A stretch of DNA of 64,000 nt from Fibrobacteria bacterium (GTDB lineage Bacteria > Fibrobacterota > Fibrobacteria > UBA11236). The DNA is taken from the NCBI GenBank assembly GCA_025360005.1, contig JANYDA010000057.1:15065-79064 (forward strand), in the 5' to 3' direction. Under the pieces are notes generated by a model. It was not told where the DNA came from. It ran no database searches and saw only the letters and a list, made by a program, of their open reading frames with translations. This document shows, one piece after another, positions 31,603 to 47,585 of this stretch; the first letter of the stretch is position 1; each line of letters opens with the position of its first letter. The position numbers were made by a program, and so were the translations under genes.

Positions 31603-32997
31603 CTATTCCGCTTTCGCGGGCGGGACGGCCTTTTCCGGCAGGAGCCTTCCGTCCGCGGCATGGGCCTTATCCCCTTCGGGACCGAATCCCAGCACGCCGG
31701 TCTCGCTGTTTTCATAGGCGGCCCGGCCCTTGTTCACGGTAATATGGCCGTTGTGCGGGTCGTGGATGGACACCGTTCCCTTGGTGGTCAGGTAATTGAG
31801 GGGATCCGGCTTGGAGGGATCGAATACCGGTAGATCCTCGTTGAGGAACGGCGTCAGGGAATTGTTCTTTTCCTTGAGATCCTTGGCCATGCACCGGGCC
31901 AGCTCAAAGGCTCCGTATTCGGTGAAATGCGATCCGTCCATATAGGCCAGCTTGTGATTGGCTCCCAGGGCTTTGACGAAGGTGAGGACCATGGCATTGA
32001 GATCGATCAGGGTGACGTTGAGATCCTTGGCGGTGGTGCGCATCACCTCCGCCAGGCCGCCGATGGAGGTCTTGGGATCATTGTCCCCGTCGCGCGCGGT
32101 GGGGGCTACGAAAACGGGAATGGCTTGCTTCGCCAGGATTTGATCTCGAAAGGCTTTTAGGTTGGCCGGGTAGGCCTTGACGTCGGCTGGGTTCTTCTGA
32201 TCATTATGCCCGAACTCGACGAACACATAGTCTCCGGGTTTGGCTTCCGCGAGGATCTTGGTCAGCCTCTTCATGGCCAGGAAGCCGCCCGAGGTGAGTC
32301 CGGACTCGGCGTAATTGGCCACGGAGACACCCGGCTTGAAAAACTTGCAGATATCCTGGCCCCAGCCGCACCAGCCTACCCTGGTCTCATCGAGCTGATC
32401 CACCACGGTGGAATTCCCGCATAGGAACACGGTGATGGCATTGTCCACCTTGGTCAAAGTGAGGCCGCAAATGGCCGGCTTGGCCCCTGCGAACCGGAAG
32501 GTGAGCTTTTCGTCCCAAGTGAAATAGGTGAGTTCCCGGGCCTTCAGGGACATGGTCACGGAGCCGTCGCTGCTTTTGGCCTCCCGCCGGTTGACGGTGA
32601 TGGTCTTGCTCAGGAATTCGCCCTTGGCGGTGGTGGCGCGGTCGAAGAGGAAGCGCCGGTTTTCCGCCTTGATGGTGGTCTCGGAGGTTTCCGAAGCGTC
32701 ACCCAGGATGAAGGTAACGTCGTAGTTACCCTGGGGGACCTTGACGGAAAAGAACATTTCCTTGGTGCCGGTGCAATTGTCGCCGCGGAGGGCGTCCGCG
32801 CCTCCGCGATCCACGCAGGTGATGCCGGAGGTGCTGTCGAACCCGAAGCCGGCGGCGATCGAATACTTGGAGGTCGCCAGGACCTGGGTGTATCCGGTTT
32901 CGGTTTTCCCGGGGCCGAAATCGAATTTGTATTCCTGGGCGGCGCAGAGGGCAAAAGAGACAAGGGGTAGGGCTAGGACTAGGCGAAAACCGGGCAT
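31603..32997 (-). CDS. Rhamnogalacturonan acetylesterase-like SGNH hydrolase (CE12) with N-terminal beta-sandwich domain
   Basis: Start chosen at MPGFRLVLALPLVSFALCA (RBS AAGGA). CE12 blocks FLCGNSTVVDQ, GWCGWGQ, FGHNDQ. Confidence 0.7.
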   Translation of the reverse strand: MPGFRLVLALPLVSFALCAAQEYKFDFGPGKTETGYTQVLATSKYSIAAGFGFDSTSGITCVDRGGADALRGDNCTGTKEMFFSVKVPQGNYDVTFILGDASETSETTIKAENRRFLFDRATTAKGEFLSKTITVNRREAKSSDGSVTMSLKARELTYFTWDEKLTFRFAGAKPAICGLTLTKVDNAITVFLCGNSTVVDQLDETRVGWCGWGQDICKFFKPGVSVANYAESGLTSGGFLAMKRLTKILAEAKPGDYVFVEFGHNDQKNPADVKAYPANLKAFRDQILAKQAIPVFVAPTARDGDNDPKTSIGGLAEVMRTTAKDLNVTLIDLNAMVLTFVKALGANHKLAYMDGSHFTEYGAFELARCMAKDLKEKNNSLTPFLNEDLPVFDPSKPDPLNYLTTKGTVSIHDPHNGHITVNKGRAAYENSETGVLGFGPEGDKAHAADGRLLPEKAVPPAKAE

Positions 32998-33017
32998 GGA
33001 GGATCCTTTGGCTGCGT

Positions 33018-34799
33018 TCATGGTTTTGACAGTTCCCGCGTGAAGTTGCCGCGTACCGTGGCCAGGCTGACCAAGTACACGCCGCTTTCCCGCAGCAGGG
33101 TTTTGCCAAGGGGCAATTCCCTGGGTCCCGTCTGCCGCGAGGTGAAGAGGACGCGGCCACGCAGATCGCGGATGATGACGGTGGATTCGCCCACCGCAAA
33201 AACGGAGATCCTGTCCAGGGTGGCACGGAAAGAGGCCGCGCCGGGCGCCGCCGCATTGCTTCCGATTGCCGTGGCCACCGTGGGCCTGCAGGTGCCCGTG
33301 TATTCGATCCTGCCGATATGCGTTCCCGTGGTGGCCGTATGCCATCCGGCATACATGATGACGTAGATGGCGCCGTCCGGGCCCTGGTCGAAGCTGACGG
33401 GTTCGAACCAATTCAGGTTCTGGAACCATTTCAGGGAGTCGACCACGCGGTCGCCCGCGTCGCTCATCTTGAGGATTTTGGCGCCCTTGAATCCGTTGTT
33501 ACCGCTGCCCTGGACCCAATCCGTCAGAAGCCAGGAGCCGTCGAAGTGGGGCGGCCATTTGATGGTCGACGTGGATGCGGGATCGTAATGATAAATGGGT
33601 CCGGTGATGGCTCCTGCGCCGCTCCCGTGCATGTAGGTATGCATGGCGGGCGTGACCGGCGGCATTTGTTCCGGGCCCCGGTTCCACTTGGACTTGTTGA
33701 TCGGCCCGGCGGCGGATTGCTTCAGACCCGGATGGGCGGCGTCGTATTGGGCCGCTCCCGCTCCCGACCATAATTCATAGTAGCCCGTCCCGTCCCCCGC
33801 GCCGAAGCCACCGGCAAAGTAGGGGTAACCGCCGTACGCGGGATGGGTGACCAGGTTATGCTCTTCGGTATAAGTGTTGGTGGTGTTGACGCCGAACTCG
33901 CCCCATGCCAGCCATCGCTTGGTGGGGTGCACGTTGATAGAGTAGGCGTTGCGCGTGCCCTTCACGTACAGTTCCGGAAGCACCTTTTTCGGATCGGCGT
34001 ATTGATCCGCGAGCGTGGTATTGCCGGCAGCGCGGAATTTCGAGGACCAGTACTCGGCGAAATTCCCGGGCGGAATGGAGTATCCCTGCGCGGAATTGTC
34101 GGGATGGATGCGGAGCACCCCGCCGCGGAAGTCCGCCAGATTGGCCGATGTCCCTTCGGAGCTCAGGCTTTCCGTGGTTTCGTTATAGGAGTTGGGGTAA
34201 TCCTTGGCGTTCTTGCCCACCGTGATCCATAGGTCCCCATAGGAGTCGAAAGTCATCGCTCCGCCGGTGTGGTTCTCGCCCGTACGGTGGAACCGCAGCA
34301 GCACCTTTTCGCTGGCGTTGTCGAGTTTACCGCCGGCGTTCAAGGTGAAACGGGAAACGTGGAATTCCGCGGGCGTACCGTTGGCCATATAGAGGTAGAT
34401 GTTTTTGTTGGTCTTGAAGGCGGGGTCCAAAGCGATGCCGGTCAGGCCCATCTCCCCCCCGGTGGAAATCCCGGGCGCGTTCCCGACCAAGGACACGGTG
34501 TTGGCCACCGCATCATAACGCTTTATGGCGCCGGTTTTTTCGACGTAATAGATGTCGGTCTTGTCGCCGGGGCGCGAATCGAAGGCCAGGTGCAGGGGTT
34601 CCAGCATGCCCGGATCCACGACCATGGGTTTGGTATTGGCGCCCGCATTGGCGGTGGGATCATGGGAGCCCACCACCGGGACATAACGGAACTGGCTCTC
34701 GGCGGCATCGGGGCAATCCGGATAGGTGAAAGCGGCGTGGGCGGCTTGCGCGGCAAGCCCGGTAGCAAGGATGAAAATCGATTTAATAGCGGAACGCAT
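33018..34799 (-). CDS. Secreted PQQ-dependent/soluble sugar dehydrogenase-like beta-propeller protein with T9SS C-terminal sorting domain
   Basis: Start chosen at 34799. Signal peptide MRSAIKSIFILATGLAAQAAHA; GLTGIALDP, NIYLYM propeller motifs; C-terminus TVIIRDLRGRVLFTSRQ...SGVYLVSL matches the Por_Secre_tail pattern. Confidence 0.55.
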   Translation of the reverse strand: MRSAIKSIFILATGLAAQAAHAAFTYPDCPDAAESQFRYVPVVGSHDPTANAGANTKPMVVDPGMLEPLHLAFDSRPGDKTDIYYVEKTGAIKRYDAVANTVSLVGNAPGISTGGEMGLTGIALDPAFKTNKNIYLYMANGTPAEFHVSRFTLNAGGKLDNASEKVLLRFHRTGENHTGGAMTFDSYGDLWITVGKNAKDYPNSYNETTESLSSEGTSANLADFRGGVLRIHPDNSAQGYSIPPGNFAEYWSSKFRAAGNTTLADQYADPKKVLPELYVKGTRNAYSINVHPTKRWLAWGEFGVNTTNTYTEEHNLVTHPAYGGYPYFAGGFGAGDGTGYYELWSGAGAAQYDAAHPGLKQSAAGPINKSKWNRGPEQMPPVTPAMHTYMHGSGAGAITGPIYHYDPASTSTIKWPPHFDGSWLLTDWVQGSGNNGFKGAKILKMSDAGDRVVDSLKWFQNLNWFEPVSFDQGPDGAIYVIMYAGWHTATTGTHIGRIEYTGTCRPTVATAIGSNAAAPGAASFRATLDRISVFAVGESTVIIRDLRGRVLFTSRQTGPRELPLGKTLLRESGVYLVSLATVRGNFTRELSKP

Positions 34800-35007
34800 G
34801 GAGAGGGATCCTTTCACCGGAGGCGCGTCGATCCTCAACCGGAACGACGCAACCTTATGATTCCCCACCCCCATCCTCAAATTGCGTCCGAATAAGAAAA
34901 TTGGCGGGGCGTTTTTTGACGAGTTCACGGCCACTCCCAATTCCGGTCTTTCCTGTATCCGGGGACGGGCGGCGTTTTTTGGGAAAGGTTTTGGGAAGGA
35001 TTAGGGA

Positions 35008-36276
35008 TTATTGCCCCATGTCCTGGACCGACATTCCATAAAACTCAAGATCATCCATCCAGAAATCGGTGGGGTCATCGGCGATAAAGACGATGTTGAT
35101 TATTTCCTTACTCGCCTGGGCCCATGTCAGTCCGTTCTTCAGGGCCGGAGAATCCGCCGCCAAGGACAACTGTGTCACGGGTATGGAAATGCGCGTCCAT
35201 GCAGGGGATAGGCCGAAGGTCCGGCTGAAGTGGTGCCAATCCTTGTAGAAGAAGAGGATGGGCGCGCACTGGAATTCGAAGCGGATGACCCCGTTGCCTT
35301 TGGCGTAGAATACCACGCTGTCCAGATGCGAAAAATCCCGTCCCGTGGCGCCATTGCCGGTAGTGAACCCGATCAACCCGTAGGTGGCTGAGGGATTGCC
35401 GCCCAACCGGTAACTCATCGCGAGGCTGCTGCCTCTCCAGGAGCTGGTATCCGCGCTGTCCGTGTAGGCCGTGGCGAAGTTGGTCCGCATGGAAGACGGG
35501 ACGAAAGTTCCCGGCCCTCCATTGGAGGCCAGGTTGTCGAAGGTGAACCATTTGCCTTTGGGGTAAACCACCGAGAAAGGCGTGGCCACTTCCTTATGCT
35601 CAAAATCCGCGACGCGGATCACGGGAACAGGGCCCACTTCCAGCATGCCAATCGGCGCTTCCGGACGGAAAGCGGTTTCCAGGGAAGCCAAGGTGGGATC
35701 CATTGGAACCACGCGCAGCAGATGCAGCCCTGCCGGGAGAGGCGGCAGGCTGAACCGGCCGAAGGCATCGGTGGTATCCGTCCAGGCTTCCCCATACAGG
35801 AACAAGATCGATTTGGGACTGTGACCGGACGGCGCTACCACGGCCGCCTCCCCGATGGTGCCTACTTCCAGGTTTACGGGAGGCAATTGCAGCAATACCG
35901 ATCGGTTGCCCACCTCTATGCGCGACTGCGTAGAAAGTACCCCGTTCGCATCGTCTTTGCTCACCTGGAGCGAGTAGTAGCCGGGTTCGACCTGGGTAAA
36001 ATAGAACCGGCCTTCTTGATCGGTCAGGGCGGCGCGCGCCGAATCCGGGCCCGACGGCGGGGTCTTGCCCAGGTTCGCGGTCGACAAGAGCAGAATGCGG
36101 GCGCCTTCGGCAGGCACGTCGCCCGGATAGAAAACCTGGCCCGTCACCGTGGATTCGGTCTCCGAAGAGGACCCGCCCCCGGATTCACAGCCATTAAAAA
36201 TGCAGGTCGTAAGCAATATCAATGCGGGCAGGGCCGCGACTGGGAATAGCCTGATCGCGCGGAAAGCCTCAAGCAT
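35008..36276 (-). CDS. Lipoprotein with carboxypeptidase-regulatory-like (CarbopepD_reg) domain, partner of a TIGR02147 HTH protein
   Basis: Signal/lipobox LILLTTCIFNGC; TGQVFYPGDVPAEGARILL Ig-like domain; start ATG overlaps the stop of the upstream HTH gene (ATGCTTGA). Confidence 0.55.
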   Translation of the reverse strand: MLEAFRAIRLFPVAALPALILLTTCIFNGCESGGGSSSETESTVTGQVFYPGDVPAEGARILLLSTANLGKTPPSGPDSARAALTDQEGRFYFTQVEPGYYSLQVSKDDANGVLSTQSRIEVGNRSVLLQLPPVNLEVGTIGEAAVVAPSGHSPKSILFLYGEAWTDTTDAFGRFSLPPLPAGLHLLRVVPMDPTLASLETAFRPEAPIGMLEVGPVPVIRVADFEHKEVATPFSVVYPKGKWFTFDNLASNGGPGTFVPSSMRTNFATAYTDSADTSSWRGSSLAMSYRLGGNPSATYGLIGFTTGNGATGRDFSHLDSVVFYAKGNGVIRFEFQCAPILFFYKDWHHFSRTFGLSPAWTRISIPVTQLSLAADSPALKNGLTWAQASKEIINIVFIADDPTDFWMDDLEFYGMSVQDMGQ

Positions 36277-37102
36277 TGCGCTTCCCTCCCGCCGGCCTGG
36301 TCATGGGGAATAACTGCAGGTTGAGTTGGTATACCGAGTCCTGGCTCCCCTGTTTGCTCACCCAGTCGGAAAGTTCGCGCCGGAAAGTGCGGATGCGGTC
36401 CTCCATCTCCGGGATCTTATCGCGTGGGACGCTGAAGGTAAGCGTGGAATAATTCCGCTTATTGCCCGGAATCCGTTTCAGTCCGGCCATGGCGAGTTCG
36501 ATGCATTGCTGGATGAAGTTGTCGATCTGCACGGATCGCGTTTCCAGGCCGGAGGATATCTGCGTAGAGGTGAGTTCGAATTTTCCGTCCGTGGTCTTCC
36601 GGATCATCCCCAACCTTTCCAACAACGCCACCGATTGCCTGGCCGGCCGCGCGCCGATGGGTGGGCTCAATTGACGGCCCAACTCCTTGTAGTCGCCGGC
36701 AAAAGGGAAGTAATGCAGCAGCTCGCGGATGGCCGTATGCTGCCACTTGGAGTAGAACTCGTATTGGCTGCGGGCTACGGGCGCAATCTTGCCGCCGTCG
36801 CTGGCCAAAAGCTTCTTGAAGAAAACCTGCTTCTTGTCGAAGGTGAGCGCCTGATTGAAGAGCACCAGGTTCGCGAAGAAGGCGGCTTCCCTTCCCTTCA
36901 ATCCGAATGCGATGCAAAAGCCGGGAATCAGTTTGCGCGATATGTTCCTCTGGCCGAACAACACCTTGGAGAAGAGGCCGGGATCGAAGCCGCCTAGGTT
37001 GCCGATGTCCCGGTGCGTGAGCTTGGCGTTCCCGGATTGGCGTTCCAGATAACTGTCGCGCAGGTATTTCCTGTAGTCCAGGTAATCGTAGACATCGACC
37101 AT
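36269..37102 (-). CDS. TIGR02147-family (Fibrobacter succinogenes paralogous family) HTH protein
   Basis: Start chosen at MVDVYDYLDYRKYLRD...GNAKLTHRDIGNLGGFDPGLFSKVLFGQRNIS...AFFANLVLFNQA; the N-terminal extension in the ORF track was discarded. Confidence 0.7.
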   Translation of the reverse strand: MVDVYDYLDYRKYLRDSYLERQSGNAKLTHRDIGNLGGFDPGLFSKVLFGQRNISRKLIPGFCIAFGLKGREAAFFANLVLFNQALTFDKKQVFFKKLLASDGGKIAPVARSQYEFYSKWQHTAIRELLHYFPFAGDYKELGRQLSPPIGARPARQSVALLERLGMIRKTTDGKFELTSTQISSGLETRSVQIDNFIQQCIELAMAGLKRIPGNKRNYSTLTFSVPRDKIPEMEDRIRTFRRELSDWVSKQGSQDSVYQLNLQLFPMTRPAGGKRNA

Positions 37103-37483
37103 TAAAAAGCGCGCTGTTCTGCCGGAGGCTTTGCCATGTGATTTGTCTACCGAAGGATCCCCATTCGATTCCGTCTTCGCCCTCGATCCGGGTTCCCCCC
37201 GGATACCATTCCCCGCCAGGCGCAAAGACTTCGGTTCAGGTAATATACACCCCGAAGCCTATGCCATGGGGGGCTATCGCGAAAGGGGCATCAACCGTAC
37301 GGGGTTCCCCAAACCACCGTCGGAAGAAGTCGAAAATCTAAAAACAACACTTTCAGAAGTCTACGAAAAACAGGTTTCTAAGGGTTGCGGGAAGGAGTGG
37401 AACGGGTGGACGCGAGTGGCCGTTGATCGCCGACGACGGCCGCGACCGTGACCGGATGAGAGCCCATCCGGGCGAGGATAGCC

Positions 37484-37909
37484 TTAAAGCGAAAAGCTGA
37501 GCGCCATGTCCGATGCCAGGTTCGGCGCCAGGCTGGCGGCGGAGTTCGGTGGGACCGTGGGCGTGGAGCCGGATGTAAAGGGTGTTCCGAAAGCTTCTGG
37601 CATGAGGATGGCCAATTCCATTTCTTTCTTCTTTCTTTCCTCTTCCGACTTCGCCTGGCATTGCACTACCATGTTCGCGAAGAATTGCGCTTCCTGGCCC
37701 CCCAATTCAAAGGCCCGGCAAAAGCCGGGTATTAGCTTGGGGGAGATATTCCGCTCTCCCTGGATCACTTTGGAGAACAGGCCGGGATCGAACCCGCCCT
37801 TCTGCCCGATCCTGCGGTGCGTGAATCCGGATGGTTTGGTCCGCTTCATATCCAGATAAGCGTCGCGAAGGAATTTTCTATAGTCGGAATATTCAAATAC
37901 ATTGGTCAT
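37484..37909 (-). CDS. Truncated TIGR02147-family paralog (N-terminal HTH half only; possible gene remnant)
   Basis: MTNVFEYSDYRKFLRDAYL...GGFDPGLFSKVIQGERNISPKLIPGFC...FFANMVVQCQ aligns (~60% identity) to the N-terminal half of the 36269–37102 protein, then ends in a low-complexity tail. Confidence 0.45.
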   Translation of the reverse strand: MTNVFEYSDYRKFLRDAYLDMKRTKPSGFTHRRIGQKGGFDPGLFSKVIQGERNISPKLIPGFCRAFELGGQEAQFFANMVVQCQAKSEEERKKKEMELAILMPEAFGTPFTSGSTPTVPPNSAASLAPNLASDMALSFSL

Positions 37910-38156
37910 GGCGTTTGCCTCTCAAGCTGCTGATGAAAGAAAATTATGCGCATGAGGGGATTTCCGCAGGGAATATTTACAGAAATGACATTTATAAAGT
38001 CTACAGTCGGCCTTAGAGGCACCAATAAAAATGGGTAAAATAAATAAATTTGGGTGAACCTTTCGGCAAATAAAGATACAACTAAGTCTACAAATAGCTT
38101 CGCCGGAGAGAATTTTCCCCAACGCGGTTCACTTCTTTCCGGATAGATTCCCGGAA

Positions 38157-40010
38157 ATGGGAAATGCACGGGACACGCTGACCGCGGTAATCTTTTCGGG
38201 TGCGATTGGGCTGGCGGCAATCCGTTCGCAGGCCGCGCCGCTTATCGGCGCCATCGCCAAGTCCGCCGAGAGCGTGGGGCGTTACGATAAGCTGGAACTG
38301 ACGGTAGCCTTGGGCGGATCCTACGCAAATCCCTTTGATCCCGACCAAATCGATCTTTCCGCGCAGTTCACTTCGCCCTCCGGAAAGCCTTGGAAGGTGA
38401 ACGGGTTCTTCGACGGATCGAAATGGAAAATCCGCTTCGCGGCCAATGAAACCGGGGCCTGGACCTACCTGGTCACGGCCAAGGACGCTTCCGGATCGGG
38501 CCAGGGCTCCCCGGGCGCATTCGTCTGCGCCGGCTCCCCTTCGCACGGATGGGTCCGCGTCGCCCCCAATAGACGCTACCTGAGATACGATGACGGCACC
38601 AGTTTTTATGGTATAGGATCCTGCCACGCCTGGGGCGTTTCCGCCAACTCCCTGGACCAGATGAGGGACCTGGGCTTCAACACCTATGTGTACTGGAACG
38701 GGACTTACGACGGCAACGGCGGCGGCAATCTCATCGAGTCCAACGCATCCGGACTGGGCAGGTACGATCAGGGCAAATGCGCCCGCATCGACAATCTCCT
38801 GGAGATGTCGGAAGCCCGCAATCTCACCATGATCCTGGTGATCCTGCCGCACGATTATGCCAGCGAGAACATGGGGGGCTGGCCCTCCGCATGGCAATCG
38901 AATCCGTACAAAGGCATAGTCAGTTGCGGCCAATATTACAGCAGCGCCTCGTCCTGGGCCTATCAGCAGAAGCAATACCGCTACATCATCGCGCGTTGGG
39001 GCTATAGCCGCGGTTTGTCCGCTTGGCAGACGGTCGATGAGATTTCCGGGACCTGCGGCTGGAAGGCCGACCAGGCCGGGGCCGAAGCATGGACAGGCAA
39101 GATCGGAGCCTTTTTCCAGGCCAACGATCCCTTCCGCCATCCTACCACGGCTTCCCACGGGGACTATTGGGACGTAGGTAACAAAGCGAACGATTTCTCC
39201 AATACCGAGGTCTACGGGAATTACGCCACCGCCAATATCGCGGCCACCATCCAGAAGCTGTGGAACGGGTACGCCAAACCCGCCATCATGGGCGAGACGG
39301 GCGCCGATAATGACGGGCCTACCGCGCACCGGAAGATCTGGGCCGGTTTGGCCGCCGGTATCGCAATCACCCCTTTGCTCTGGCAATTCAACCAGGGATG
39401 GAACGCCGCCATCTCCTCCCAGTACGCGCCCTTCGTGAAGTTCACCGCCGGGATCGATTTCGCGGCGTTGACGTCGCCGGCGCAGGCCAAGGTCACCGTA
39501 CCAGGAGCCATCGGCTACGCCATCGCGAGCGACCAAGTGGCTTTCGGCTGGATCACGGGGGACATTTCCGGCAAGATGGCCGCCATGGGCGGATTGGCGG
39601 ACGGGAATGCCAGCGTGCAATGGTACGATTGCTCCACCGGCAACCTGTTGGCCAGCACCCCGGCCGTCATTTCCGGGGGTAACCTGTCGGTTGCGGTACC
39701 GTCCACCGCCCAGACGGATCTGGCCTTCAAGATCATCGGTCCGGGAACGGGCGTCCGCCCGGCGGTTTCCGCGCATTCCGGATCGGGATGGGAACCGGAC
39801 TACGCCGACGGGTTGCTTACCTTCGGCCGGCCCGGGGCGGAAAAAGCGGAAATGAAAATCATCTCCGCCCGCGGCCGCACGGTATTTGCGGGAACGGCGG
39901 CCGGTAACGGACGGGTTACGGTGGCGGTGGGAAAGTTGGAATCGGGCGTCTATTGGCTGGAGTCCGGCAAAACGGGCGGCAAGACCTTCAACAGGTTCCT
40001 GGTCCGATAG
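38157..40010 (+). CDS. DUF5060 + glycoside hydrolase family 5-like secreted protein with T9SS C-terminal domain
   Basis: N-terminal DUF5060 (VGRYDKLELTVALGG...NPFDP), central cellulase-family region, C-terminus KIISARGRTVFAGT...SGVYWLESGKTGGKTFNRFLV (Por_Secre_tail-like). Confidence 0.65.
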   Translation: MGNARDTLTAVIFSGAIGLAAIRSQAAPLIGAIAKSAESVGRYDKLELTVALGGSYANPFDPDQIDLSAQFTSPSGKPWKVNGFFDGSKWKIRFAANETGAWTYLVTAKDASGSGQGSPGAFVCAGSPSHGWVRVAPNRRYLRYDDGTSFYGIGSCHAWGVSANSLDQMRDLGFNTYVYWNGTYDGNGGGNLIESNASGLGRYDQGKCARIDNLLEMSEARNLTMILVILPHDYASENMGGWPSAWQSNPYKGIVSCGQYYSSASSWAYQQKQYRYIIARWGYSRGLSAWQTVDEISGTCGWKADQAGAEAWTGKIGAFFQANDPFRHPTTASHGDYWDVGNKANDFSNTEVYGNYATANIAATIQKLWNGYAKPAIMGETGADNDGPTAHRKIWAGLAAGIAITPLLWQFNQGWNAAISSQYAPFVKFTAGIDFAALTSPAQAKVTVPGAIGYAIASDQVAFGWITGDISGKMAAMGGLADGNASVQWYDCSTGNLLASTPAVISGGNLSVAVPSTAQTDLAFKIIGPGTGVRPAVSAHSGSGWEPDYADGLLTFGRPGAEKAEMKIISARGRTVFAGTAAGNGRVTVAVGKLESGVYWLESGKTGGKTFNRFLVR

Positions 40011-40058
40011 TACCTGGCCAGCCCGTTTCGGAATCATAACGAAAGAGAAGGATTTCCC

Positions 40059-41270
40059 ATGATCTTCGGCGATGCCATCGTGCGCGCTTCTAAGCGGGGG
40101 GTTTCCGCGCTTGTTTTTTCCGTCCTCTGCTTGGGAGCCCCAAAGGTTGCCATTGCCCTGGCGCCAGCCAACCCCAATGCCATCGATGATGCGAAAAAAA
40201 TCCTGAATTATTTCGTTTCCTTGCCGGATCGCGCCGATGGGAAGGTGATCTCCGGGCAATTCGCGGGCTGGGGAAACGATCTCCCCAACGGTTACCAGAA
40301 CGATGTGGTCAACCTCGACAAAAGCGCCGGGAAATGGGTGGCCATGATGGGAACGGACTGGCACGACTTCTCCAGCGGTTCCGGATTCAAGCCTCAGGAG
40401 CTGATCAATTGGTGGAAGGCCGGCGGCATCGTAACGGTGGATTACCATTTCGATAATCCTTTCGTGGGCGGCGGGGCCTGGACGACCACCGGGGACCTGT
40501 CAGAACTGCTGGTTTCCGGAAGCGCATCCAATAGGAAATGGATGGCGACGCTGGATCAAACCGCCTCCAACCTCAAGACTTTGCAGGATGCGGGCGTGGT
40601 GGTACTATGGCGTCCCTTCCACGAACAGAACGGGGGATGGTTCTGGTGGGGCAATAAGAACCAGGCCGATTTCGTGGCGTTATGGAAACAGATGTTCGCC
40701 TATTTCACCAAGACCAAGGGATTGAACAATCTCCTCTGGGTCTTCGCGCCCAATTACGGCAGCAACGTCACGAAATATTATCCCGGGCCGGCTTATGTCG
40801 ACATCGTGGGTCTGGACGCCTATTTCGACGCGCCCAAGACCCTGAGCATCACCGGCTATGCGGAGATGGCGGCGCTCGGCAAGCCTTTCGGCCTTACGGA
40901 ATTCGGCGGAGTCCCCGCCGCCGGCGGCAGCAATCACGTTTTCAACAACCAGGTTTTGATCAACGAAATACGGGCCAAGTACCCCATGATCTCCTTCTTC
41001 ATGAATTGGCATTGCCCCTGGTCCATCTATTGCCAGGATAACGCGGCCGCTTTGCTGAACGATTCCTGGGTGATTACCCGCGATGAACTCGATTGGAAGA
41101 ACGCACCTGTGGTGGGCGTGATGCAAAAGGGATCGGCCCCCGGATACCGGGCCGCCAAGGGCCGCGTTCCAGGCGGCGGCGTGCGCGAGGGCTATTCCAT
41201 CCAGGGCAGGGAGGTGGAGACCACGCCGCCGGCCTCACCCCAATACTTTCGCCTTAACCTTAACCCCTAA
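40059..41270 (+). CDS. Glycoside hydrolase family 26 (beta-mannanase)
   Basis: GH26 signature VLWRPFHEQNGGWFWWG and catalytic-region TEFG. Confidence 0.9.
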   Translation: MIFGDAIVRASKRGVSALVFSVLCLGAPKVAIALAPANPNAIDDAKKILNYFVSLPDRADGKVISGQFAGWGNDLPNGYQNDVVNLDKSAGKWVAMMGTDWHDFSSGSGFKPQELINWWKAGGIVTVDYHFDNPFVGGGAWTTTGDLSELLVSGSASNRKWMATLDQTASNLKTLQDAGVVVLWRPFHEQNGGWFWWGNKNQADFVALWKQMFAYFTKTKGLNNLLWVFAPNYGSNVTKYYPGPAYVDIVGLDAYFDAPKTLSITGYAEMAALGKPFGLTEFGGVPAAGGSNHVFNNQVLINEIRAKYPMISFFMNWHCPWSIYCQDNAAALLNDSWVITRDELDWKNAPVVGVMQKGSAPGYRAAKGRVPGGGVREGYSIQGREVETTPPASPQYFRLNLNP

Positions 41271-41314
41271 CCCGTATCCTTAACCCTGTTATGCCGCCCG
41301 GGTAGGCCGGAGGC

Positions 41315-42436
41315 TCACAACCCAGGCAGTATCCTGATCCTCTGACCGCTCACGTCATAGGCATGGACTCCGTCGGAAAAGACCGGCACTGCATTCACCT
41401 CCGTCACCCGGCCCTGGTCCACGCGGAAGGCTTTCGTCATTTCCATGATCCCGGCGATGGCGCTGTTCTTGGTCCGGATCTCCTCGCGCACCCAGGTTCC
41501 GGAAGCGCTCAGGTTTCCCGCGTTCCAACCGCCGTTGCCGCTGGCGCCGGGCTTCAGGGCCGCGGAGGTTTCCCCCAAATCCGCCACGGACCAATTCATC
41601 CAACTGACTGAATTCTGATCCAGGAAGGTAGTCCAGCGCCGCATCTCCGTCGTGTCCAGCTTGCCGTTGCCGGTGGCTTCGCTGGCGCCGCCTTCCGTGA
41701 CCAGCAAGGGTATGCCGTTGTCGAGCGCAGCCTGGGCTTTGCTGCGAAAGGATTGCTTGTGGGTGGCCGCGTAGAAGTGCAGGGTATAGACAATGTTCTT
41801 GCTGCTGGTGATGGGGTTCTTCGCGGCTTCGTCCACGTCCTGGTCCCAACTGCGGGTTCCGCAAAGGATCAGGTTCTCGGGATCGTTGGCGCGGATAACG
41901 GGGATGATGGCCTCATGGTAGGGTTTGATCACGCTGGCCCAGGCATGCGATGACAGCGGTTCGTTCCAGGTCTCGTAGATGATATTGGGAATGTCTTTGT
42001 AAGTCTGGGAGAGGTCCTGGAAGAACTTCTTGGACGTGGCTAGATCGTTGTTGCCGTTCCCGGTTTCATGGAAGTCCACCACCACGTACATCCCCAGATC
42101 GATGGCCGCCTGAACCACGGCTTTGGCTTTGGCCATTTCTTTGTCGGGATTCGCCTGGTAGCCGCCGGAACCCACCGCCATGGTGGCGCGGATGATATTG
42201 CATTTCCAATCGTCCCGGAGCCATTTCAGGCAGGCCGCGTTGTAGAAGGCCGGTTTCCATTGGCTCCAATACAAAGCCATGCCGCGGAACTGGACGGGCG
42301 CCCCGTTCTTGTCGACGATGCGGTTGCCCTGCACGCTGAGCCGGCCATGCATTGCCACCGCCGTTTGCGCCTCTACCGATGCCAAGGCCAAGCCGCTGGC
42401 AAGGGCCATGAGCGCGAAGCGGGTTTGTGTTTTCAT
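41315..42436 (-). CDS. Glycoside hydrolase family 5 endoglucanase (cellulase)
   Basis: Signal peptide; IYETWNEP (acid/base) and LVTEGG (nucleophile) motifs of GH5. Confidence 0.9.
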   Translation of the reverse strand: MKTQTRFALMALASGLALASVEAQTAVAMHGRLSVQGNRIVDKNGAPVQFRGMALYWSQWKPAFYNAACLKWLRDDWKCNIIRATMAVGSGGYQANPDKEMAKAKAVVQAAIDLGMYVVVDFHETGNGNNDLATSKKFFQDLSQTYKDIPNIIYETWNEPLSSHAWASVIKPYHEAIIPVIRANDPENLILCGTRSWDQDVDEAAKNPITSSKNIVYTLHFYAATHKQSFRSKAQAALDNGIPLLVTEGGASEATGNGKLDTTEMRRWTTFLDQNSVSWMNWSVADLGETSAALKPGASGNGGWNAGNLSASGTWVREEIRTKNSAIAGIMEMTKAFRVDQGRVTEVNAVPVFSDGVHAYDVSGQRIRILPGL

Positions 42437-43689
42437 GGCGAGACCTTCCCGAGGATGGTTTTTTCATATTCCCGCAAAGGAATGCGGGCTCCGTTGACGT
42501 GATACCCGCCAAGGGCCGGCGAGGCGGGATACGGGTCGGCCAGGCCGGACGCAAACGGTTGCGATCCGCGCGCCCGGGCTTGCGGGCGCTGTAGATCCGC
42601 GGAGTTGGCCAGGGGCAGGGAGGCTACGTTTTCCGCCCATAGCCTTTGTATGCTGGCATACCCGGTGGCATTGGGATGCACGCCATCCGGACCCAATTCC
42701 TGGGGATGCTTCAGGAACCAGGAGTAGAGGTCCGGGCCCGAAGGCAAGGAACGGGCCTTGGCAAGGGAATCAATTAAGACGAGATAAGCCGCATCGACCT
42801 GCCATTTGGCTACGGAGGGGTCGGTGGCCGTGAAGCGCGCCAGTACCGGCTGCAAACCATGCGCCTGCAGCGAATCCAGGATTTTGATCATGGCGGCTTT
42901 GTAATCCGGCATGTTGGCGGTGCCGCCGCCCCAGGCATCGTTGGTGCCCAAGGAAAGCCCCCACATGGTGGCGCCTTCCCCCATGGCTATATAACGGGTG
43001 ATGTCTTTGGAGACGTCATGGGCCTTGATGCAAGCGATCCCGGCCCGCACCAGCGGGGGTACCCTGCCCGGTACCGCTTTGGCCACCAGGGTGGAGAAAT
43101 CGGATCCGGCCGGCATCAGGCTTTTGAAGGCCCCGGCCGTGATGCTGTTGCCCACGATGATCCAACCTTCCGGATTGGGTTGCGAAGCGTCGAAGATCTG
43201 GACTTCGTCCAGGCTGCCCTGGCCTTTGGCGATCTTGAGCTTGACCCAGCTTCGGCCCTGGAATGCCACGTAATGCATGCGGCTGGTGACGGGGTTGGCG
43301 GTGATCCTCACGGCTGGGGTCCAGTCGCCGTCCACGCCGTCGCTGGAATTGGAGGAAACGTCGATCTCGTAGTCGACAGGCCTTTCCGTGATCGCGCCCG
43401 TGCAGGATCCGGTAGGAGCCAACTCGCCCGACCAGTAGTAGACCGGGGCGTTCCAAGAGAACAAAAGGCGGGTGGGGCCCGGGGGTATCTTGTAGGCTAC
43501 CCAGGAACCGTTGGTTATTTGCCAGCCGCCGTTGAACCAGCGGCCGTCGGCGAGGAAATTCAGGCCGGTGGTAGGGCTTCCGGCGGGAGTAATTCCTTTG
43601 GAAAGCAGCGGCGCCGGTTGGACAGCCGCGTACGCCCGGGCCAGCATCAGCGCGCATAGGATGGGTTTGGAAATGTTTTTCGCAAGCAT
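42433..43689 (-). CDS. SGNH/GDSL hydrolase (carbohydrate esterase) with N-terminal carbohydrate-binding-like domain
   Basis: GWIIVGNSITAG (block I Ser), SLGTNDA, DGVHPN (block V); ATGA-coupled to the downstream GH5 gene. Confidence 0.7.
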   Translation of the reverse strand: MLAKNISKPILCALMLARAYAAVQPAPLLSKGITPAGSPTTGLNFLADGRWFNGGWQITNGSWVAYKIPPGPTRLLFSWNAPVYYWSGELAPTGSCTGAITERPVDYEIDVSSNSSDGVDGDWTPAVRITANPVTSRMHYVAFQGRSWVKLKIAKGQGSLDEVQIFDASQPNPEGWIIVGNSITAGAFKSLMPAGSDFSTLVAKAVPGRVPPLVRAGIACIKAHDVSKDITRYIAMGEGATMWGLSLGTNDAWGGGTANMPDYKAAMIKILDSLQAHGLQPVLARFTATDPSVAKWQVDAAYLVLIDSLAKARSLPSGPDLYSWFLKHPQELGPDGVHPNATGYASIQRLWAENVASLPLANSADLQRPQARARGSQPFASGLADPYPASPALGGYHVNGARIPLREYEKTILGKVSP

Positions 43690-43981
43690 CGTTTTTGTTT
43701 GTCGGAATGGACTCCGTCATCCCTGCATGCAAGATAGGGGGTAAATGGGGAAATATCTGCCGGAAGACAAGGAACCCATTGTAAATAGTAGACATGGGAG
43801 AAAGTCGGGCAATAGCCGCACGAAATCGGCTCTTACGGGGAATTCCCGATCGCAAAAAAGCAAAGCAGCCCAATCCGCTTGGGAAGCAATGCCATCCGGA
43901 TCGGGTTTACCCGGAAAGACGATGGGCAACGGCCATTGGCCGGCACCCAAAAAATGTGCGGGCGGTTTGGGGTTTATCCGC

Positions 43982-45526
43982 TCAGGGATGGAACTCGGAA
44001 AGATTGCCCTTCCGGCTGCCGTTCACGGCCCGCAAATCATGGTAGCTCCCCCAAGGAGCCAGCCAAATCCGGGCGCCGCCGAATCCCATGGTTCCGGCAT
44101 GGAGGGCGGTGGGGACGGTGTACATGCCGGATCCCGGTCCCTGGGTAAGACCCGTCGGCGCGCCGGTTTCCACGGCGCCCATATCGGGCGCTCCTTGGTA
44201 ATATTTCGCCGCGTCGAAAGGAAGCGCACCCGCAGGGACCGCTCCGGCATTGGCCAATTTGCTACCGGCCGCCAAGCGGAAAGGATCGAAGATCAGGTTG
44301 CCGTCGGCGCGCCGGGTGATTTTAATCGCGGCCAGGGAAGCCGCGAAGTCCGACGCCGTCGCCACCAGACCCTTGCCGTTGACGCTACTCGGGGTTTTGG
44401 ATTTGTCCCACCAGCAATTGGAATTGGCGACATCGGTCCCGATATGCTTGTCGCTTTGCGCATTTGCCGGCTGGGTCCAGAAGGAAATGTTGTTGGTGAA
44501 TACCGCTTCCGTGGCCACGGAGTTGGTTCCGAAATTGAAATTGCCCTCAACGTTGTCGAAGGCCAGGTTATTGGACACGCGGATGGCGCCGGGATTGCTG
44601 TTCCAGGTGAACCCGTTCTTGCCGTTGGAAAACGCCACGCAGCGCGTCACCACGTGCGCCACCGCGATTTTGTCGCCTCCCAGCTTGAAGCCGTTGCGAT
44701 CACCGTTGGCGTTGGTGGTTCCGTCGGTCAAGGTGCCGTTGGAATAGGAGATGCATTGATCGAGGACTACCGTCCCTATCGGCCCCGTTTCAGGCTTGGT
44801 GAAAAGGTCCCAGCCATCGTCGATGTTGTTATGCGAAACGCAACCGAGGAAGACATTGCCGCTCCCGGCCGTGAGCTTGCAGGCGAACCCGTCCGCGTTT
44901 TCGCCCGAGCCGGGAGGCGCATCGTAGTTGTCATAGGACTCGCAGTTCAGGATGAGGTTGTCCGAGGGCCATTCGGTATTGGGGGCATCGGCCTTCCAGC
45001 GGCCTATCTGCAGCCCGGTGTCCCGGTTCTTATGGGTCACGCAACCTTCCACGATATTATGGCTGCCGGCTACGTAGATGCCGTTGTCGGCTGAGCCTTT
45101 GACCTCCAGTCCGCGCACATGCCAGTAGGAACCGTCGATTTGCAGGCCGCGCGGATTGCTCGCCGCGGCGTACGGTTCGGTGGAGAAATCCAGCACCGGT
45201 TTTTCCCCTGCCGCGGCGAACAGGCATTTCATCTTGCCGGCCGTACCGCCGGCGGTACGCTCCAGGGTAACCTGCGCGTTAAGCGCATAGACTCCGCCCT
45301 TCAGCTGGATGGTGTCGCCCGGCGCCGAGACCAGGATGGCCGCGGCCAGGGTGGTGGGCTGATTGGCCGCGCCGGAAGCGGATGCGGAGCCGTCGGCCGC
45401 CGCGACGATGATTTTGGCTTGGCCGGGAACCACGGCCGCCGCCAGCAGGCAAGCCAGGCCGCATAGCCAATGCGATGGGAAGGAAATCCATTTTTTCCCG
45501 TTCCGTCCATCCATATACTCATTCAT
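43982..45526 (-). CDS. Right-handed beta-helix pectate lyase-like protein (PL9-like)
   Basis: YVAGSHNIVEGCVTHKNRDTGLQI ... NADGFACKL ... GNVFLGCVSHNNIDDGWDLF parallel beta-helix repeats. Start chosen at MNEY (RBS AAAGGA); alternative ATGs at 45541 and 45559. Confidence 0.65.
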   Translation of the reverse strand: MNEYMDGRNGKKWISFPSHWLCGLACLLAAAVVPGQAKIIVAAADGSASASGAANQPTTLAAAILVSAPGDTIQLKGGVYALNAQVTLERTAGGTAGKMKCLFAAAGEKPVLDFSTEPYAAASNPRGLQIDGSYWHVRGLEVKGSADNGIYVAGSHNIVEGCVTHKNRDTGLQIGRWKADAPNTEWPSDNLILNCESYDNYDAPPGSGENADGFACKLTAGSGNVFLGCVSHNNIDDGWDLFTKPETGPIGTVVLDQCISYSNGTLTDGTTNANGDRNGFKLGGDKIAVAHVVTRCVAFSNGKNGFTWNSNPGAIRVSNNLAFDNVEGNFNFGTNSVATEAVFTNNISFWTQPANAQSDKHIGTDVANSNCWWDKSKTPSSVNGKGLVATASDFAASLAAIKITRRADGNLIFDPFRLAAGSKLANAGAVPAGALPFDAAKYYQGAPDMGAVETGAPTGLTQGPGSGMYTVPTALHAGTMGFGGARIWLAPWGSYHDLRAVNGSRKGNLSEFHP

Positions 45527-45624
45527 GTTAGATCCTTTCATATGGCTGACAGTTTTCATTTTGGACAAATTCCTTTCCAGGCCGGGGCGGGAACCGCCTT
45601 GGCCTAACGCTCCATTCGGTTCGC

Positions 45625-46428
45625 TCAAGGAACCGGGACTGGATTTACCTGGGGATTTTCCTTCCAAACCTTGGAGGAATTGAAGGACTTGAAAAAGCTG
45701 GCTTTCAGGGCCAGGAACAGATCCGGATTATGCTCCAAATCCATGATGGCCACTCGAGCGCCCGTCTTATCGGGATAGGTCACCGCATCCTGTATGTTCA
45801 CCGCCATCGCCCATTTGGTGGCGAAGAAGATGAATTCCAGATCGTATACCGATTCATGCCGCCACTTTTCCAACAGATCCTGGGTATAGACCAGGTTGAT
45901 TTTATACTCATCCGGCAATTGCCAGAGGAACGGAATGAGTTTGCCTCCGGATTCCCAAGTGCCTTTGATATAGCCGCGATCGGGGAAGGAGGCGAAGTCC
46001 AGCGTGTCCGGCCACAAGGTATCATGCGCCGGGATGCGGGACTCCAGTTTCATGATGGTCCAGGATCCGATCGGGACCTGCACGGGCGGCAGGCGGGCGG
46101 TGGTGTCGTGGCCGGTGAAATCGATGCTCCGGCCCATGGAATCGGGCACTTTCCAGATCCGGCCTTCCAGGCTGTCCGTGGTCCGGTAGTTCACTTCCAC
46201 TACGTTGAAATAGAATCGGAGTATGTGCACGCTTGGCGTATCTACCACGGACGGCTTGGCCGCTCCCGTTTTGGGCAGCGTGGCCGGTTCTCCCACGTAG
46301 TCGATGGAGAAATTGGCGTTGATCTCCTGGGTCTTGCCCGGATTGCCGACCTCGGTATAGCAGGCCATCAACCCCGCGCCGGCCAATGCGGCGAGGACCA
46401 GGGAGGCGCGGCTGAGGGGGCCTTTCAT
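45625..46428 (-). CDS. Lipoprotein of unknown function, partner of a TIGR02147 HTH protein
   Basis: MKGPLSRASLVLAALAGAGLMAC lipoprotein signal; ATGA overlap with the upstream HTH gene stop. Confidence 0.55.
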   Translation of the reverse strand: MKGPLSRASLVLAALAGAGLMACYTEVGNPGKTQEINANFSIDYVGEPATLPKTGAAKPSVVDTPSVHILRFYFNVVEVNYRTTDSLEGRIWKVPDSMGRSIDFTGHDTTARLPPVQVPIGSWTIMKLESRIPAHDTLWPDTLDFASFPDRGYIKGTWESGGKLIPFLWQLPDEYKINLVYTQDLLEKWRHESVYDLEFIFFATKWAMAVNIQDAVTYPDKTGARVAIMDLEHNPDLFLALKASFFKSFNSSKVWKENPQVNPVPVP

Positions 46429-47282
46429 ACGCCCTTCCCTTTGTTCAGCGGAAACAGCTGGATGTTCACCTGGACCACGCGCTCGCCATGCCCGTCTTCC
46501 ACGGCGAAGTGGCGCAGCTCTTTGCGCATCAACTGGATTTGCTTTTTGAGTTTTGGAAAATCCTCTTCGCGGATGGCGAAGCTAACCGCCGAAATGTCCC
46601 GCCTTTCCGGCTCCACGCTGTCGATGGACTTCTTGGCCATCTCTATCATCTGCAAATGGTAGTTGCGTACGAAAAGGGGCAACACTTCGTCATCGGTGGT
46701 GATGGCATCATCCACGGCCAGGTAACCATTGGCGGTTTTCTTGATCAATCCGGCTTCCAACAGAAGCTTTAGTGACCCCTGTGCCTCCTTAGGTTCGATC
46801 TTCGGCTGCAATTGGCCCGCAATCCACTCCGGGCTGTTGCGGAAAGTGGATAAGGAAAGCATTTCCCGGATGGCGGAATGGTACCAGGTGCTGAAGATGC
46901 GGAATTGGTTCTCCTCCAGCTTTTTCAACCCGTTCGGCTTCTCGGATTTGAGCAGCCGCTGATAATAGGTGTTCTTTTCGTCCAGCGTCTTCGATTGGTT
47001 GAAGAAGACCAGGTTCTCGAAATATTCCGCGCGGTCCCGCGTGAGTTTCAATGCCATGGAAAGCTTCAGCAAGGTTTTCTTGCTCAGGTTCCGCTTGCCG
47101 TCCAGGACATAACGCATGAGCGTATGGCTGGAGAATCCGGCCTCTTTGGCGAAGGCGCGCACGGAAAAGCGCGAATCGGTTTGCTTACGGGCGGCATGGA
47201 CATCCGCCAGGTAAAGGCGGTAGTTGGTGTAGTTGATGATGTCGGGTTTTTCCGGCATCCGGGTTAGCTGACTTGTGTCCAT
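46425..47282 (-). CDS. TIGR02147-family HTH protein (second paralog)
   Basis: Start chosen at 47282. YTNYRLYLADVHAARKQTDSRFSVRAFAKEAGFSSHTLMRYVLDGKRNLS...AEYFENLVFFNQSK; ~30% identical over the full length to the 36269–37102 protein. Confidence 0.7.
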   Translation of the reverse strand: MDTSQLTRMPEKPDIINYTNYRLYLADVHAARKQTDSRFSVRAFAKEAGFSSHTLMRYVLDGKRNLSKKTLLKLSMALKLTRDRAEYFENLVFFNQSKTLDEKNTYYQRLLKSEKPNGLKKLEENQFRIFSTWYHSAIREMLSLSTFRNSPEWIAGQLQPKIEPKEAQGSLKLLLEAGLIKKTANGYLAVDDAITTDDEVLPLFVRNYHLQMIEMAKKSIDSVEPERRDISAVSFAIREEDFPKLKKQIQLMRKELRHFAVEDGHGERVVQVNIQLFPLNKGKGV

Positions 47283-47507
47283 TATTGTTAGAATACGGCC
47301 AGAACCCGCGATTTTACTAGAGTTTTTGAACAACCCCGGAAACAATTGTGCCCAGTCTTCCGCTCGCTCCGGCCTCAAAAAAAGCAAACCAGGTCCATGC
47401 TTTTGCGATGCTGGGGAAGGCTATCTTTCATTGAAGCGACTCGATGCCGGCGAAAGGCGGGCTTCTCCCCTGCAAAATATTCGGGAAAGGGGTTAAATTC
47501 CCCGCAT

Positions 47508-47585
47508 CGGGGCGTAGCTCAGTCTGGCTAGAGCATCAGCTTTGGGAGCTGAGGGTCGTTGGTTCGAATCCAGTCGCCCCGACCA
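47508..47585 (+). tRNA. tRNA-Pro (anticodon TGG), CCA encoded
   Basis: Cloverleaf read manually: 7-bp acceptor stem CGGGGCG/CGCCCCG, U8A9, D-arm GCTC...GAGC, anticodon stem CAGCT/AGCTG with loop TTTGGGA (TGG), T-arm GGTTCGAATCC, discriminator A, CCA. Confidence 0.9.

Follow-up and report, generated by a model that had tools for sequence, protein, structure and literature searches.

The window analysed here is a 64,000-nt stretch of DNA (positions 15,065 to 79,064 of contig JANYDA010000057.1, assembly GCA_025360005.1), which contains two gene pairs of the same design. In each pair, a helix-turn-helix (HTH) protein of the TIGR02147 family is encoded directly upstream of a predicted lipoprotein (LP), and all four genes lie on the minus strand. 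HTH2 (46425-47282) is a full-length TIGR02147/DUF4423 protein of 285 aa, with a predicted XRE-type HTH followed by a winged-helix domain, and its partner LP2 (45625-46428) is a 267-aa lipoprotein with the lipobox LMAC and a beta-sandwich body without a Pfam family. HTH1 (36269-37102), also full-length, has 277 aa, and its partner LP1 (35008-36276) is a 422-aa lipoprotein composed of a short sequence box, a CarboxypepD_reg immunoglobulin (Ig)-like domain, and a C-terminal domain of about 200 aa. When about 90 other loci were compared, TIGR02147 and a lipoprotein proved to form a near-obligate two-gene cassette, whose lipoproteins carry a previously unnoticed tag after the cysteine, called here the post-Cys box. 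The preliminary description of this DNA was framed in terms of Fibrobacter; the source is, however, a Fibrobacteria metagenome-assembled genome (MAG) with a GC content of 60.8%, not Fibrobacter itself, and the closest relatives of the window proteins are found in uncultured Fibrobacteria MAGs.

The TIGR02147 proteins and their coupling to lipoprotein genes

Membership of both HTH proteins in TIGR02147 (Fsuc_second), proposed in the preliminary description, was confirmed with the family model of NCBIfam, for which the curated cut-off is 50 bits. HTH1 scored 255.3 bits (model positions 1-271 of 272) and HTH2 scored 295 bits (2-271 of 272), while the matches to Pfam DUF4423, with a gathering score of 30 bits, reached 116 bits and 144 bits (4e-42), respectively. 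In their full length of about 275 aa they are typical of the family, which is expanded as paralogues in Fibrobacterota. The two proteins are only 30% identical to each other. Orthologues of HTH2 with 53-87% identity occur throughout Fibrobacterota, and those of HTH1 share 65-77% identity, including 77% in the locus L208 and 66% in the contig of P0192. The family had been described as large and unstudied, and this is accurate: a profile search (E<=1e-10) returned 12,678 clusters at 50% identity, the best 150 of which are nearly all about 270-300 aa long with a single architecture. The TIGR02147 and DUF4423 database entries give no function, and the literature searched contains one incidental mention of DUF4423 (Bd3700; PMC12546842).

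The AlphaFold2 (AF2) model of HTH2 (predicted local distance difference test score, pLDDT, of 76) has a clear N-terminal helical domain and a helix-helix-wing at about residues 150-190, with the remainder forming a less confident helical hairpin and a C-terminal strand that carries the near-invariant sequence VVQVNIQLFPL. In Foldseek searches against the PDB, the N-terminal domain resembled NHTF, HigA, GraA, C.AhdI, and C.BclI (probability 0.9-0.99); the matches to HigA, C.AhdI, and NHTF had probabilities of 0.97-0.99 and target-normalized template modelling (TM) scores of 0.5-0.6, but E>=0.1. At the domain level, the helix-helix-wing resembled MarR-type winged helices. Sequence-based matches to the HTH region were weak: a profile search of PDB sequences placed C.BclI over it at E=0.25, and the Pfam HTH_31 match (E=0.026) fell below threshold, while one homologue, P0259, has precomputed PF01381/PF13560 assignments. 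This domain make-up fits that of a DNA-binding regulator, and DNA binding is predicted from the modelled fold.

Both pairs of the window overlap at their junctions, by 4 nt for LP2/HTH2 and by 8 nt (ATGCTTGA) for LP1/HTH1. The coupling by ATG/TGA overlap claimed earlier was therefore correct as to the overlap itself in both pairs, although that of HTH1/LP1 is not a simple ATGA. To define a set of loci, we used a degenerate-pattern scan with one genome per species, which gave 527 confirmed TIGR02147 stretches, and analysed the best 80 matches to HTH1. With orthologue-derived loci added, 95 places were obtained, of which 92 were evaluable and 87 distinct, all from other genomes. By taxonomy, they belong to Fibrobacterales, Chitinivibrionales/Chitinispirillaceae, and Raymondbacteria, with a few from Desulfobacterales/"Deltaproteobacteria" and unclassified MAGs.

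At every one of the 87 distinct places, the open reading frame (ORF) that follows on the same strand starts between -17 and +32 nt from the HTH stop codon, and it overlaps the HTH gene in 58 of them. The most frequent offsets are -4 (38 places), -1 (11), +1 (9), and -8 (8). All but two of the 87 partners have a hydrophobic N-terminus followed by a cysteine, and this Cys is the sole invariant column among the 84 partners that were aligned. Thus, the proposed rule that the HTH gene precedes a gene for a secreted lipoprotein is general (about 85 of the 87 distinct places), and the coupling is far beyond chance. Tandem cassettes (HTH-LP-HTH-LP) were seen in several MAGs (L014, L017, L083, and L087), and one MAG (nzgw217) contributes at least 7 cassettes among the best 80 loci.

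An apparent natural fusion of the two genes, P0183 (385 aa, on a 3.5-kb Logan contig), was considered and set aside. It joins a TIGR02147 protein that lacks the last ~25 residues to an LP2-like protein at the signal peptide. Its N-terminus is garbled and the junction is spanned by a deletion, so that an artefact of assembly or a pseudogene formed by deletion is the probable explanation.

The partner lipoproteins and the post-Cys box

By pattern rules, the N-termini of LP1 and LP2 consist of a positively charged N-region, a hydrophobic core, and a Cys. The lipobox context of LP2 is ...AGAGLMAC, and that of LP1 is ...LLTTCIFNGC, where the choice of Cys is ambiguous. LP1, LP2, and the other partners match the pattern of lipoproteins cleaved by signal peptidase II (SPase II), and their lipidation is predicted. 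No similarity between LP1 and LP2 was found by BLAST. The Ig-like domain of LP1 is a confident CarboxypepD_reg match (Pfam, 5.7e-12), its C-terminal domain has no match in Pfam or PDB sequences and may form a CBM-like jelly roll, and the protein as a whole is 61% identical to the partner in L208. For LP2, 67 homologues were found, and all 36 of those aligned with it contain C-x-T-E-x-G-N. Its AF2 model is a beta-sandwich (pLDDT 88.7), in which the box lies in a lower-confidence tether right before the first strand; the best PDB resemblance, MbnP, has a TM score of about 0.35, too weak to interpret.

Pfam domains in 84 partners include CarboxypepD_reg (51), DUF2341 (28), and Laminin_G_3 (27), as well as leucine-rich repeats (LRR), GH12, PL1, and others. 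The common plan of the partners is a lipid anchor, the box, an Ig-like stalk, and a variable binding or enzymatic head. In Fibrobacter succinogenes, envelope lipoproteins with CarboxypepD_reg domains (FSU_2817, FSU_1088, FSU_2134, and FSU_0627) were detected by Raut et al. (PMC6851124). These are possible TIGR02147 partners.

The box lies a few residues after the Cys and has the consensus A-G-G-G-[ST]-[ED]-[TV]-[GET]-N-[GP], with the core G-G-[ST]-[ED]-[TV]-x-N-[GP]. The preliminary description had called the two lipoproteins of the window unrelated; despite the negative BLAST result, they share this element. In LP1 it is GGSSSETEST (residues 34-43; 36148-36177, minus strand) and in LP2 it is MACYTEVGNP (residues 21-30; 46339-46368, minus strand), the two sites scoring 15.4 bits each with a position-specific scoring matrix (PSSM). 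A score of at least 10 bits was reached in 76 of the 87 partners, and most of the others show visible variants. The spacing between the Cys and [ST] is concentrated at 10-12 residues. It is reduced to 2-3 residues in the orthologue group of LP2, whose C-[FY]-T-E-[VI]-G-N-P-G starts right at the Cys and is invariant in the 36 homologues aligned.

The box is essentially specific to TIGR02147 partners. Six-frame ORFs of at least 100 aa from the loci and the window (460,096 residues) contain 76 sites scoring at least 14 bits; 74 of these are partner N-termini, one belongs to a partner truncated where its contig ends, and the last is stray. The sites within the window are those of LP1 and LP2 alone. 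Among N-termini selected by one crude rule for lipoproteins, the box was present in 41 of 50 from partners and in none of 35 from non-partners, and a generic lipoprotein signal was rejected on this count. The association was also approached from the opposite side, by scanning metagenome contigs with a DNA pattern for G-G-[ST]-E-T-T-N-G. This reverse scan gave 120 stretches, mostly chance or unrelated matches (e.g., an AMP-ligase motif), and 9 with the context of a signal peptide plus Cys. In seven of the 8 evaluable ones, a TIGR02147 ORF of the same strand ends 74-86 nt upstream, and the exception resembles a Gram-positive solute-binding lipoprotein. Taken together with the forward counts, this means that the association of the box with TIGR02147 holds both ways.

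Synonymous codons vary freely at every position of the box, so that the peptide, rather than the DNA or RNA, is under selection, which rules out a nucleic acid element. Other readings of the motif were also considered. Autoproteolysis at Asn-Pro or Asn-Gly is ruled out as its general role, as Asn is missing in 30 of 76 boxes; N-P occurs in 15 of 76 and is present in LP2 but not in LP1. A TonB-box reading of [ED]-T seems unlikely, as the following G-N-P/G is not strand-like. The subtype of the box follows the HTH subfamily, with N-P found 14:1 with HTH2-like and N-G 14:3 with HTH1-like proteins.

The short paralogue, upstream elements and the enzyme genes

A third TIGR02147-related gene, the short HTH (37484-37909, minus strand; 141 aa), lies upstream of HTH1. 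It matches TIGR02147 with 87 bits over model positions 1-99 of 272 only, so that it is not a full-length member, and no DUF4423 match was found in the Pfam scan. Its sequence is 62% identical to the N-terminus of HTH1 and continues into a conserved charged tail (QAKSEEERKKKEMEL..LMPE) that lies outside TIGR02147. It had been taken for a truncated copy, but it is a conserved gene of 141-144 aa: a 143-aa gene in L208 and a 144-aa gene in the contig of P0192 immediately precede the HTH1 orthologue on the same strand. The L208 protein shares 70% identity with the 141-aa ORF over 107 residues, charged tail included. Because both the short gene and the 8-nt HTH1/LP1 overlap recur in L208 and the contig of P0192, shortHTH-HTH1-LP1 is a conserved trio, as judged from sequence, specific to the HTH1 orthologue group. 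No such copies were found in the other 80 loci, and a short HTH as a common feature of the family is thus ruled out. The segment DPGLFSKV(L/I), at the expected position of the XRE-type recognition helix, is nearly identical in the short HTH and HTH1 and different in HTH2. The short HTH probably binds the same TGTAGACTT boxes in the DNA as HTH1, as a co-regulator or a competitor. The spacer between the two genes (37103-37483) measures 380 nt in the window and 78 nt in L208, and is replaced by a 4-nt overlap in the contig of P0192; the additional DNA of the window, which gave no ORF or Rfam match, includes a third TGTAGACTT-like box.

The DNA upstream of both pairs contains conserved elements. 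The 17-mer TGGGCACAATTGTTTCC (47338-47354, minus strand) lies 56-72 nt before the HTH2 start codon and recurs ahead of the HTH2 orthologues of L005, L006, L001, and L048, conserved where the surrounding DNA has diverged. The window contains two exact copies of its first 12 bases, where 0.02 would be expected. The second occurrence lies inside the palindrome TGGGCACAATTGCGCCCA (56081-56098), 72-89 nt upstream of a second PL9-like (polysaccharide lyase family 9) gene (54381-56009, minus strand; Pel9A-like) that is 40% identical to the first one described below; the palindrome is located in the intergenic region between this gene and a divergent Kelch-repeat protein gene (56303-57880). A sigma-54 promoter was considered for the 17-mer and rejected, as the element reads GGGCACAATTGTTTC, with the -12 GC replaced by TC. 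Sigma-54-like sites, searched for as GG-N10-GC (TGGCAC-N5-TTGC), showed no excess over shuffled sequence upstream of 89 TIGR02147 genes.

On the HTH1 side, TGTAGACTT has three matches in the 64 kb with at most one mismatch. Two exact boxes lie 87 nt apart (38084-38092 and 37997-38005, minus strand) between the short HTH and the DUF5060-domain enzyme gene, and the third copy, CGTAGACTT (37357-37365, minus strand), with one mismatch, is found upstream of HTH1. The same two exact boxes, 85 nt apart, precede the short HTH in L208. It is plausible that the 17-mer with its 12-mer is a candidate operator for HTH2 and that the TGTAGACTT boxes serve HTH1 and the short HTH.

The region between the two pairs (38157-45526) is occupied by genes for polysaccharide-degrading enzymes, and their earlier assignments were upheld by Pfam. 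Next to LP2 lies the PL9-like pectate lyase (43982-45526, minus strand; Pel9A-like), which is probably the third gene of the HTH2-LP2 unit and is followed by a terminator-like hairpin with a T-run (43863-43880, minus strand) identified by a pattern scan only. Beyond it are a GDSL/SGNH esterase (42433-43689, minus strand; Lipase_GDSL_2), whose stop codon overlaps the start of the next gene by 4 nt, and a cellulase-family enzyme of glycoside hydrolase family 5 (GH5; 41315-42436, minus strand; Cellulase, 4e-60). The DUF5060-domain enzyme (38157-40010) and a GH26 enzyme (40059-41270) form a plus-strand operon (38157-41270) divergent from the short HTH. Downstream of LP1, on the same strand, gene calls and Pfam place a GSDH-like beta-propeller (33018-34874) and an SGNH esterase with a galactose-binding-like domain (31603-33021). 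The gene for tRNA-Pro(TGG) was upheld at 47508-47585 on the plus strand, divergent from HTH2; it is a neighbour outside the module, and the Rfam search found nothing beyond it.

These genes had been read as a variable island of carbohydrate-active enzymes (CAZymes), inserted at tRNA-Pro or captured between paralogous repeats. In favour of such an island, the tRNA gene does adjoin the region, L006 lacks the block after PL9, and different neighbours are seen in other relatives. The block nevertheless lies 5' of the tRNA; a second copy of the tRNA 3' end is absent within 3 mismatches, so that no attachment repeat was seen; and no integrase is present among the called genes (about 26.3 to 47.0 kb). 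GC content over 38-46 kb is 0.57-0.63, without deviation from the 0.61 overall. HTH1 and HTH2, at 30% protein identity, provide no repeat, as none was found at the DNA level between the two pairs; the sole one in the region relates HTH1 to the short HTH (157 nt at 72%). Moreover, the PL9 and GH26 genes each remain with their own cassette in relatives. HTH-LP-PL9 is followed by unrelated genes in L006 (HTH2 orthologue 79%), in agreement with the hairpin after PL9; L001 (HTH2 orthologue 66%) has HTH-LP-PL1; and the contig of P0192 carries two GH26 genes in divergent orientation to the short HTH, matching the arrangement of DUF5060/GH26 in the window. This synteny, the hairpin, and the absence of repeats or a GC shift therefore identify the block as the junction of two TIGR02147-headed loci, HTH2-LP2-PL9 and shortHTH-HTH1-LP1, the latter divergent from DUF5060/GH26. 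The island is largely refuted and highly improbable. The SGNH-GH5 unit between the two cassettes has no assigned regulator.

Several further observations concern these genes. HTH2-LP2 loci adjoin a tRNA gene in 5 of 6 lineages checked (the window, L001, L003, L005, and L048, with none in L006), and the tRNA type differs, being Pro in the window and L005 only and Ile, Arg, or Leu in the others. A 34-nt direct repeat, 74% identical (43854-43887 and 47378-47411), includes the hairpin after PL9, and a similar T-rich hairpin stands just upstream of the HTH2 promoter region. The DUF5060 enzyme has a weak match (E=0.007) to Por_Secre_tail, the C-terminal sorting domain of type IX secretion. This sequence match hints that some neighbouring enzymes may leave the cell by that route and not as lipoproteins.

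Interpretation, related systems and significance

We lean towards the reading that TIGR02147 proteins are autoregulated transcription factors that co-express box-tagged envelope lipoproteins, here together with pectate-lyase- and mannanase-type genes, and that the box is a sorting, tethering, or processing signal. A regulatory role had been suggested before, and it fits both the fold and the elements conserved in the DNA upstream. The other suggestion, sorting, is unsupported for the cytoplasmic HTH protein; if there is a sorting signal, it would be the lipoprotein's box. According to the favoured reading, the TIGR02147 protein would bind DNA in the cytoplasm through its XRE-type HTH and the MarR-like winged helix in DUF4423, and would head, and most likely autoregulate, a small operon. 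The second gene, always translationally coupled, would supply an envelope lipoprotein in fixed stoichiometry with the factor. This lipoprotein, possibly exposed at the cell surface, would comprise the lipobox Cys, the class-specific box, the CarboxypepD_reg Ig-like stalk, and a variable distal domain, such as a ConA-like lectin, DUF2341, LRR, a carbohydrate-binding module (CBM), or sometimes an enzyme. Secreted enzymes would follow or flank the pair in many, not all, loci. In the window, one cassette would be the pectate-lyase locus HTH2-LP2-PL9, with a candidate operator in common with the second PL9 gene 8.7 kb away. The other would be shortHTH-HTH1-LP1(-GSDH-SGNH), divergent from the mannanase-type DUF5060/GH26 operon and provided with repeated TGTAGACTT boxes. 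Some machinery common to these lipoproteins may read the box at its set distance from the lipid anchor.

A number of points weigh against this reading. A plain regulator with its target does not explain why the box is confined to TIGR02147 partners or why a tagged second gene is obligatory. The candidate operators could be sites for other factors or promoter elements. The pLDDT of the HTH2 model is moderate, and Foldseek found no full-length structural relative of HTH2 in the PDB. The third genes vary between loci and include S8 peptidases, arylsulfotransferase-like proteins, methyltransferases, transporters, and CAZymes; the polysaccharide link is therefore local to these two orthologue groups and not a rule of the family. 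The locus set was drawn from the 80 best among 527 matches to HTH1 and thus does not amount to an unbiased census, and gene starts and lipoprotein status were assigned by our own heuristics, not by a trained predictor. Finally, 24 of 76 box-bearing partners have a non-canonical residue (R, K, H, Q, or others) at position -1 of the Cys. Residues R, K, H, or Q at this position are found mostly in Chitinispirillaceae (L023, L037, L040, L041, L047, L061, L063, L064, L066, L072, and others), and they reflect either a relaxed SPase II specificity in those organisms or another role for the Cys.

Two other readings were weighed against the same observations. The pair could be a trans-envelope sensing device, in which the distal domain of the lipoprotein senses a polymer or ligand and the signal is relayed to the cognate TIGR02147 protein by a shared transducer or protease recognising the box, analogous to arrays of sigmaI/RsgI or of extracytoplasmic function (ECF) sigma and anti-sigma factors. 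Obligate 1:1 coupling with overlapping codons is typical of interacting regulator pairs, paralogue arrays occur (at least 7 loci in one MAG), the lectin, CBM, and LRR heads are sensor-like, and the co-variation of box subtype and HTH subfamily would be in line with such a device. The conserved C-terminal VVQVNIQLFPL of the HTH proteins was modelled at low confidence, as interaction motifs often are, and RsgI offers a precedent (PMC10328401). However, the partners have no cytoplasmic domain, only a short N-region ahead of the hydrophobic core; no third gene is conserved beside the pairs; the regulator is not a sigma factor; and an RsgI-like Asn-Pro site is not general (15 of 76 boxes, with Asn missing in 30). 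On balance, we regard such sensing, the main rival to the favoured reading, as unlikely.

Alternatively, the box could be a general surface-export signal of lipoproteins in these phyla, with only an indirect link to TIGR02147. Fibrobacterota belong to the Fibrobacteres-Chlorobi-Bacteroidetes (FCB) group, and Bacteroidota have a lipoprotein export signal, a short motif located just after the lipidated Cys in a subset of lipoproteins, with an acidic patch at +2 to +5. The fixed distance of the box from the lipidated Cys and its conservation at the protein level are what a sorting signal would be expected to show. Nevertheless, the box is missing from all 35 other lipoprotein-like N-termini of this DNA, and in the window it is confined to LP1 and LP2. 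A general signal would also mark many unlinked genes, and the reverse scan, in which 7 of 8 N-termini were directly downstream of TIGR02147, therefore counts against it as well. The box also differs from the Bacteroidota signal in its sequence (G-G-S-E-T-x-N), in its usual spacing of about 11 residues, and in being limited to the partners of one regulator family. We consider this explanation rather improbable.

The favoured reading, in which the TIGR02147 factor drives a tagged lipoprotein, has partial counterparts in known systems. As in the polysaccharide utilization loci (PULs) of Bacteroidota, a dedicated regulator and a surface-type lipoprotein (Ig-like, lectin- or CBM-like) stand beside secreted glycan-degrading enzymes, and the enzyme class is kept in orthologous loci. 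In contrast to PULs, the regulator belongs to none of the hybrid two-component system (HTCS), SusR, or ECF sigma types, it is coupled 1:1 to the lipoprotein at the level of translation, and many loci of the family have no CAZyme. No SusC/SusD, TonB_dep_Rec, or Plug match was found among the called genes (about 26.3 to 47.0 kb) or the other proteins scanned. The SigmaI/RsgI system of Clostridium thermocellum (PMC10328401) is similar in its multiple paralogous bicistronic units, with the regulator followed by an extracytoplasmic protein, its variable polysaccharide-binding-type domains, and its link to polysaccharide-degrading genes. Unlike SigmaI, TIGR02147 is not a sigma factor (NCBIfam and Pfam scans gave no sigma family match for HTH1 or HTH2); the partner has no cytoplasmic anti-sigma domain, and the Asn-Pro site is not general. 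XRE controller (C) proteins and HigA, which are typically autoregulators acting on upstream repeats, appear to share the N-terminal fold and a G-x-R-N-x-S turn after the recognition helix, but TIGR02147 adds the winged helix and the C-terminal helical region (DUF4423), and its downstream gene encodes an exported lipoprotein, not a toxin or restriction enzyme. The obligate box-lipoprotein, the candidate operators, and the short N-terminal-only paralogue appear in no family description found.

Fibrobacter and its relatives are major fibre degraders of rumen and soil, which gives the regulation of their plant-polymer-degrading genes a wider interest. The genome paper of F. succinogenes (PMC3079729) reported few recognisable regulators near cellulase genes. 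For TIGR02147, with its 12,678 clusters, our results add a testable rule, namely that its members drive a box-tagged envelope lipoprotein, and a sequence signature by which the partner lipoproteins can be located. They also add candidate operators, in the form of the 12-mer common to the HTH2 operon and the second pectate-lyase gene and of the TGTAGACTT boxes at the mannanase-side locus. The box motif may define a new route of lipoprotein sorting or processing. As a more far-reaching speculation, to which we give little weight, the pair might be an unrecognised trans-envelope signalling device, in which the head senses a surface polymer, the box docks to a shared envelope machine (a protease, a transporter, or a TonB-like energiser), and docking controls the cognate dual-HTH factor. 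If this were true, the sigmaI/RsgI or PUL sensor systems would have a separate counterpart, in thousands of variants, in Fibrobacterota and some other phyla.

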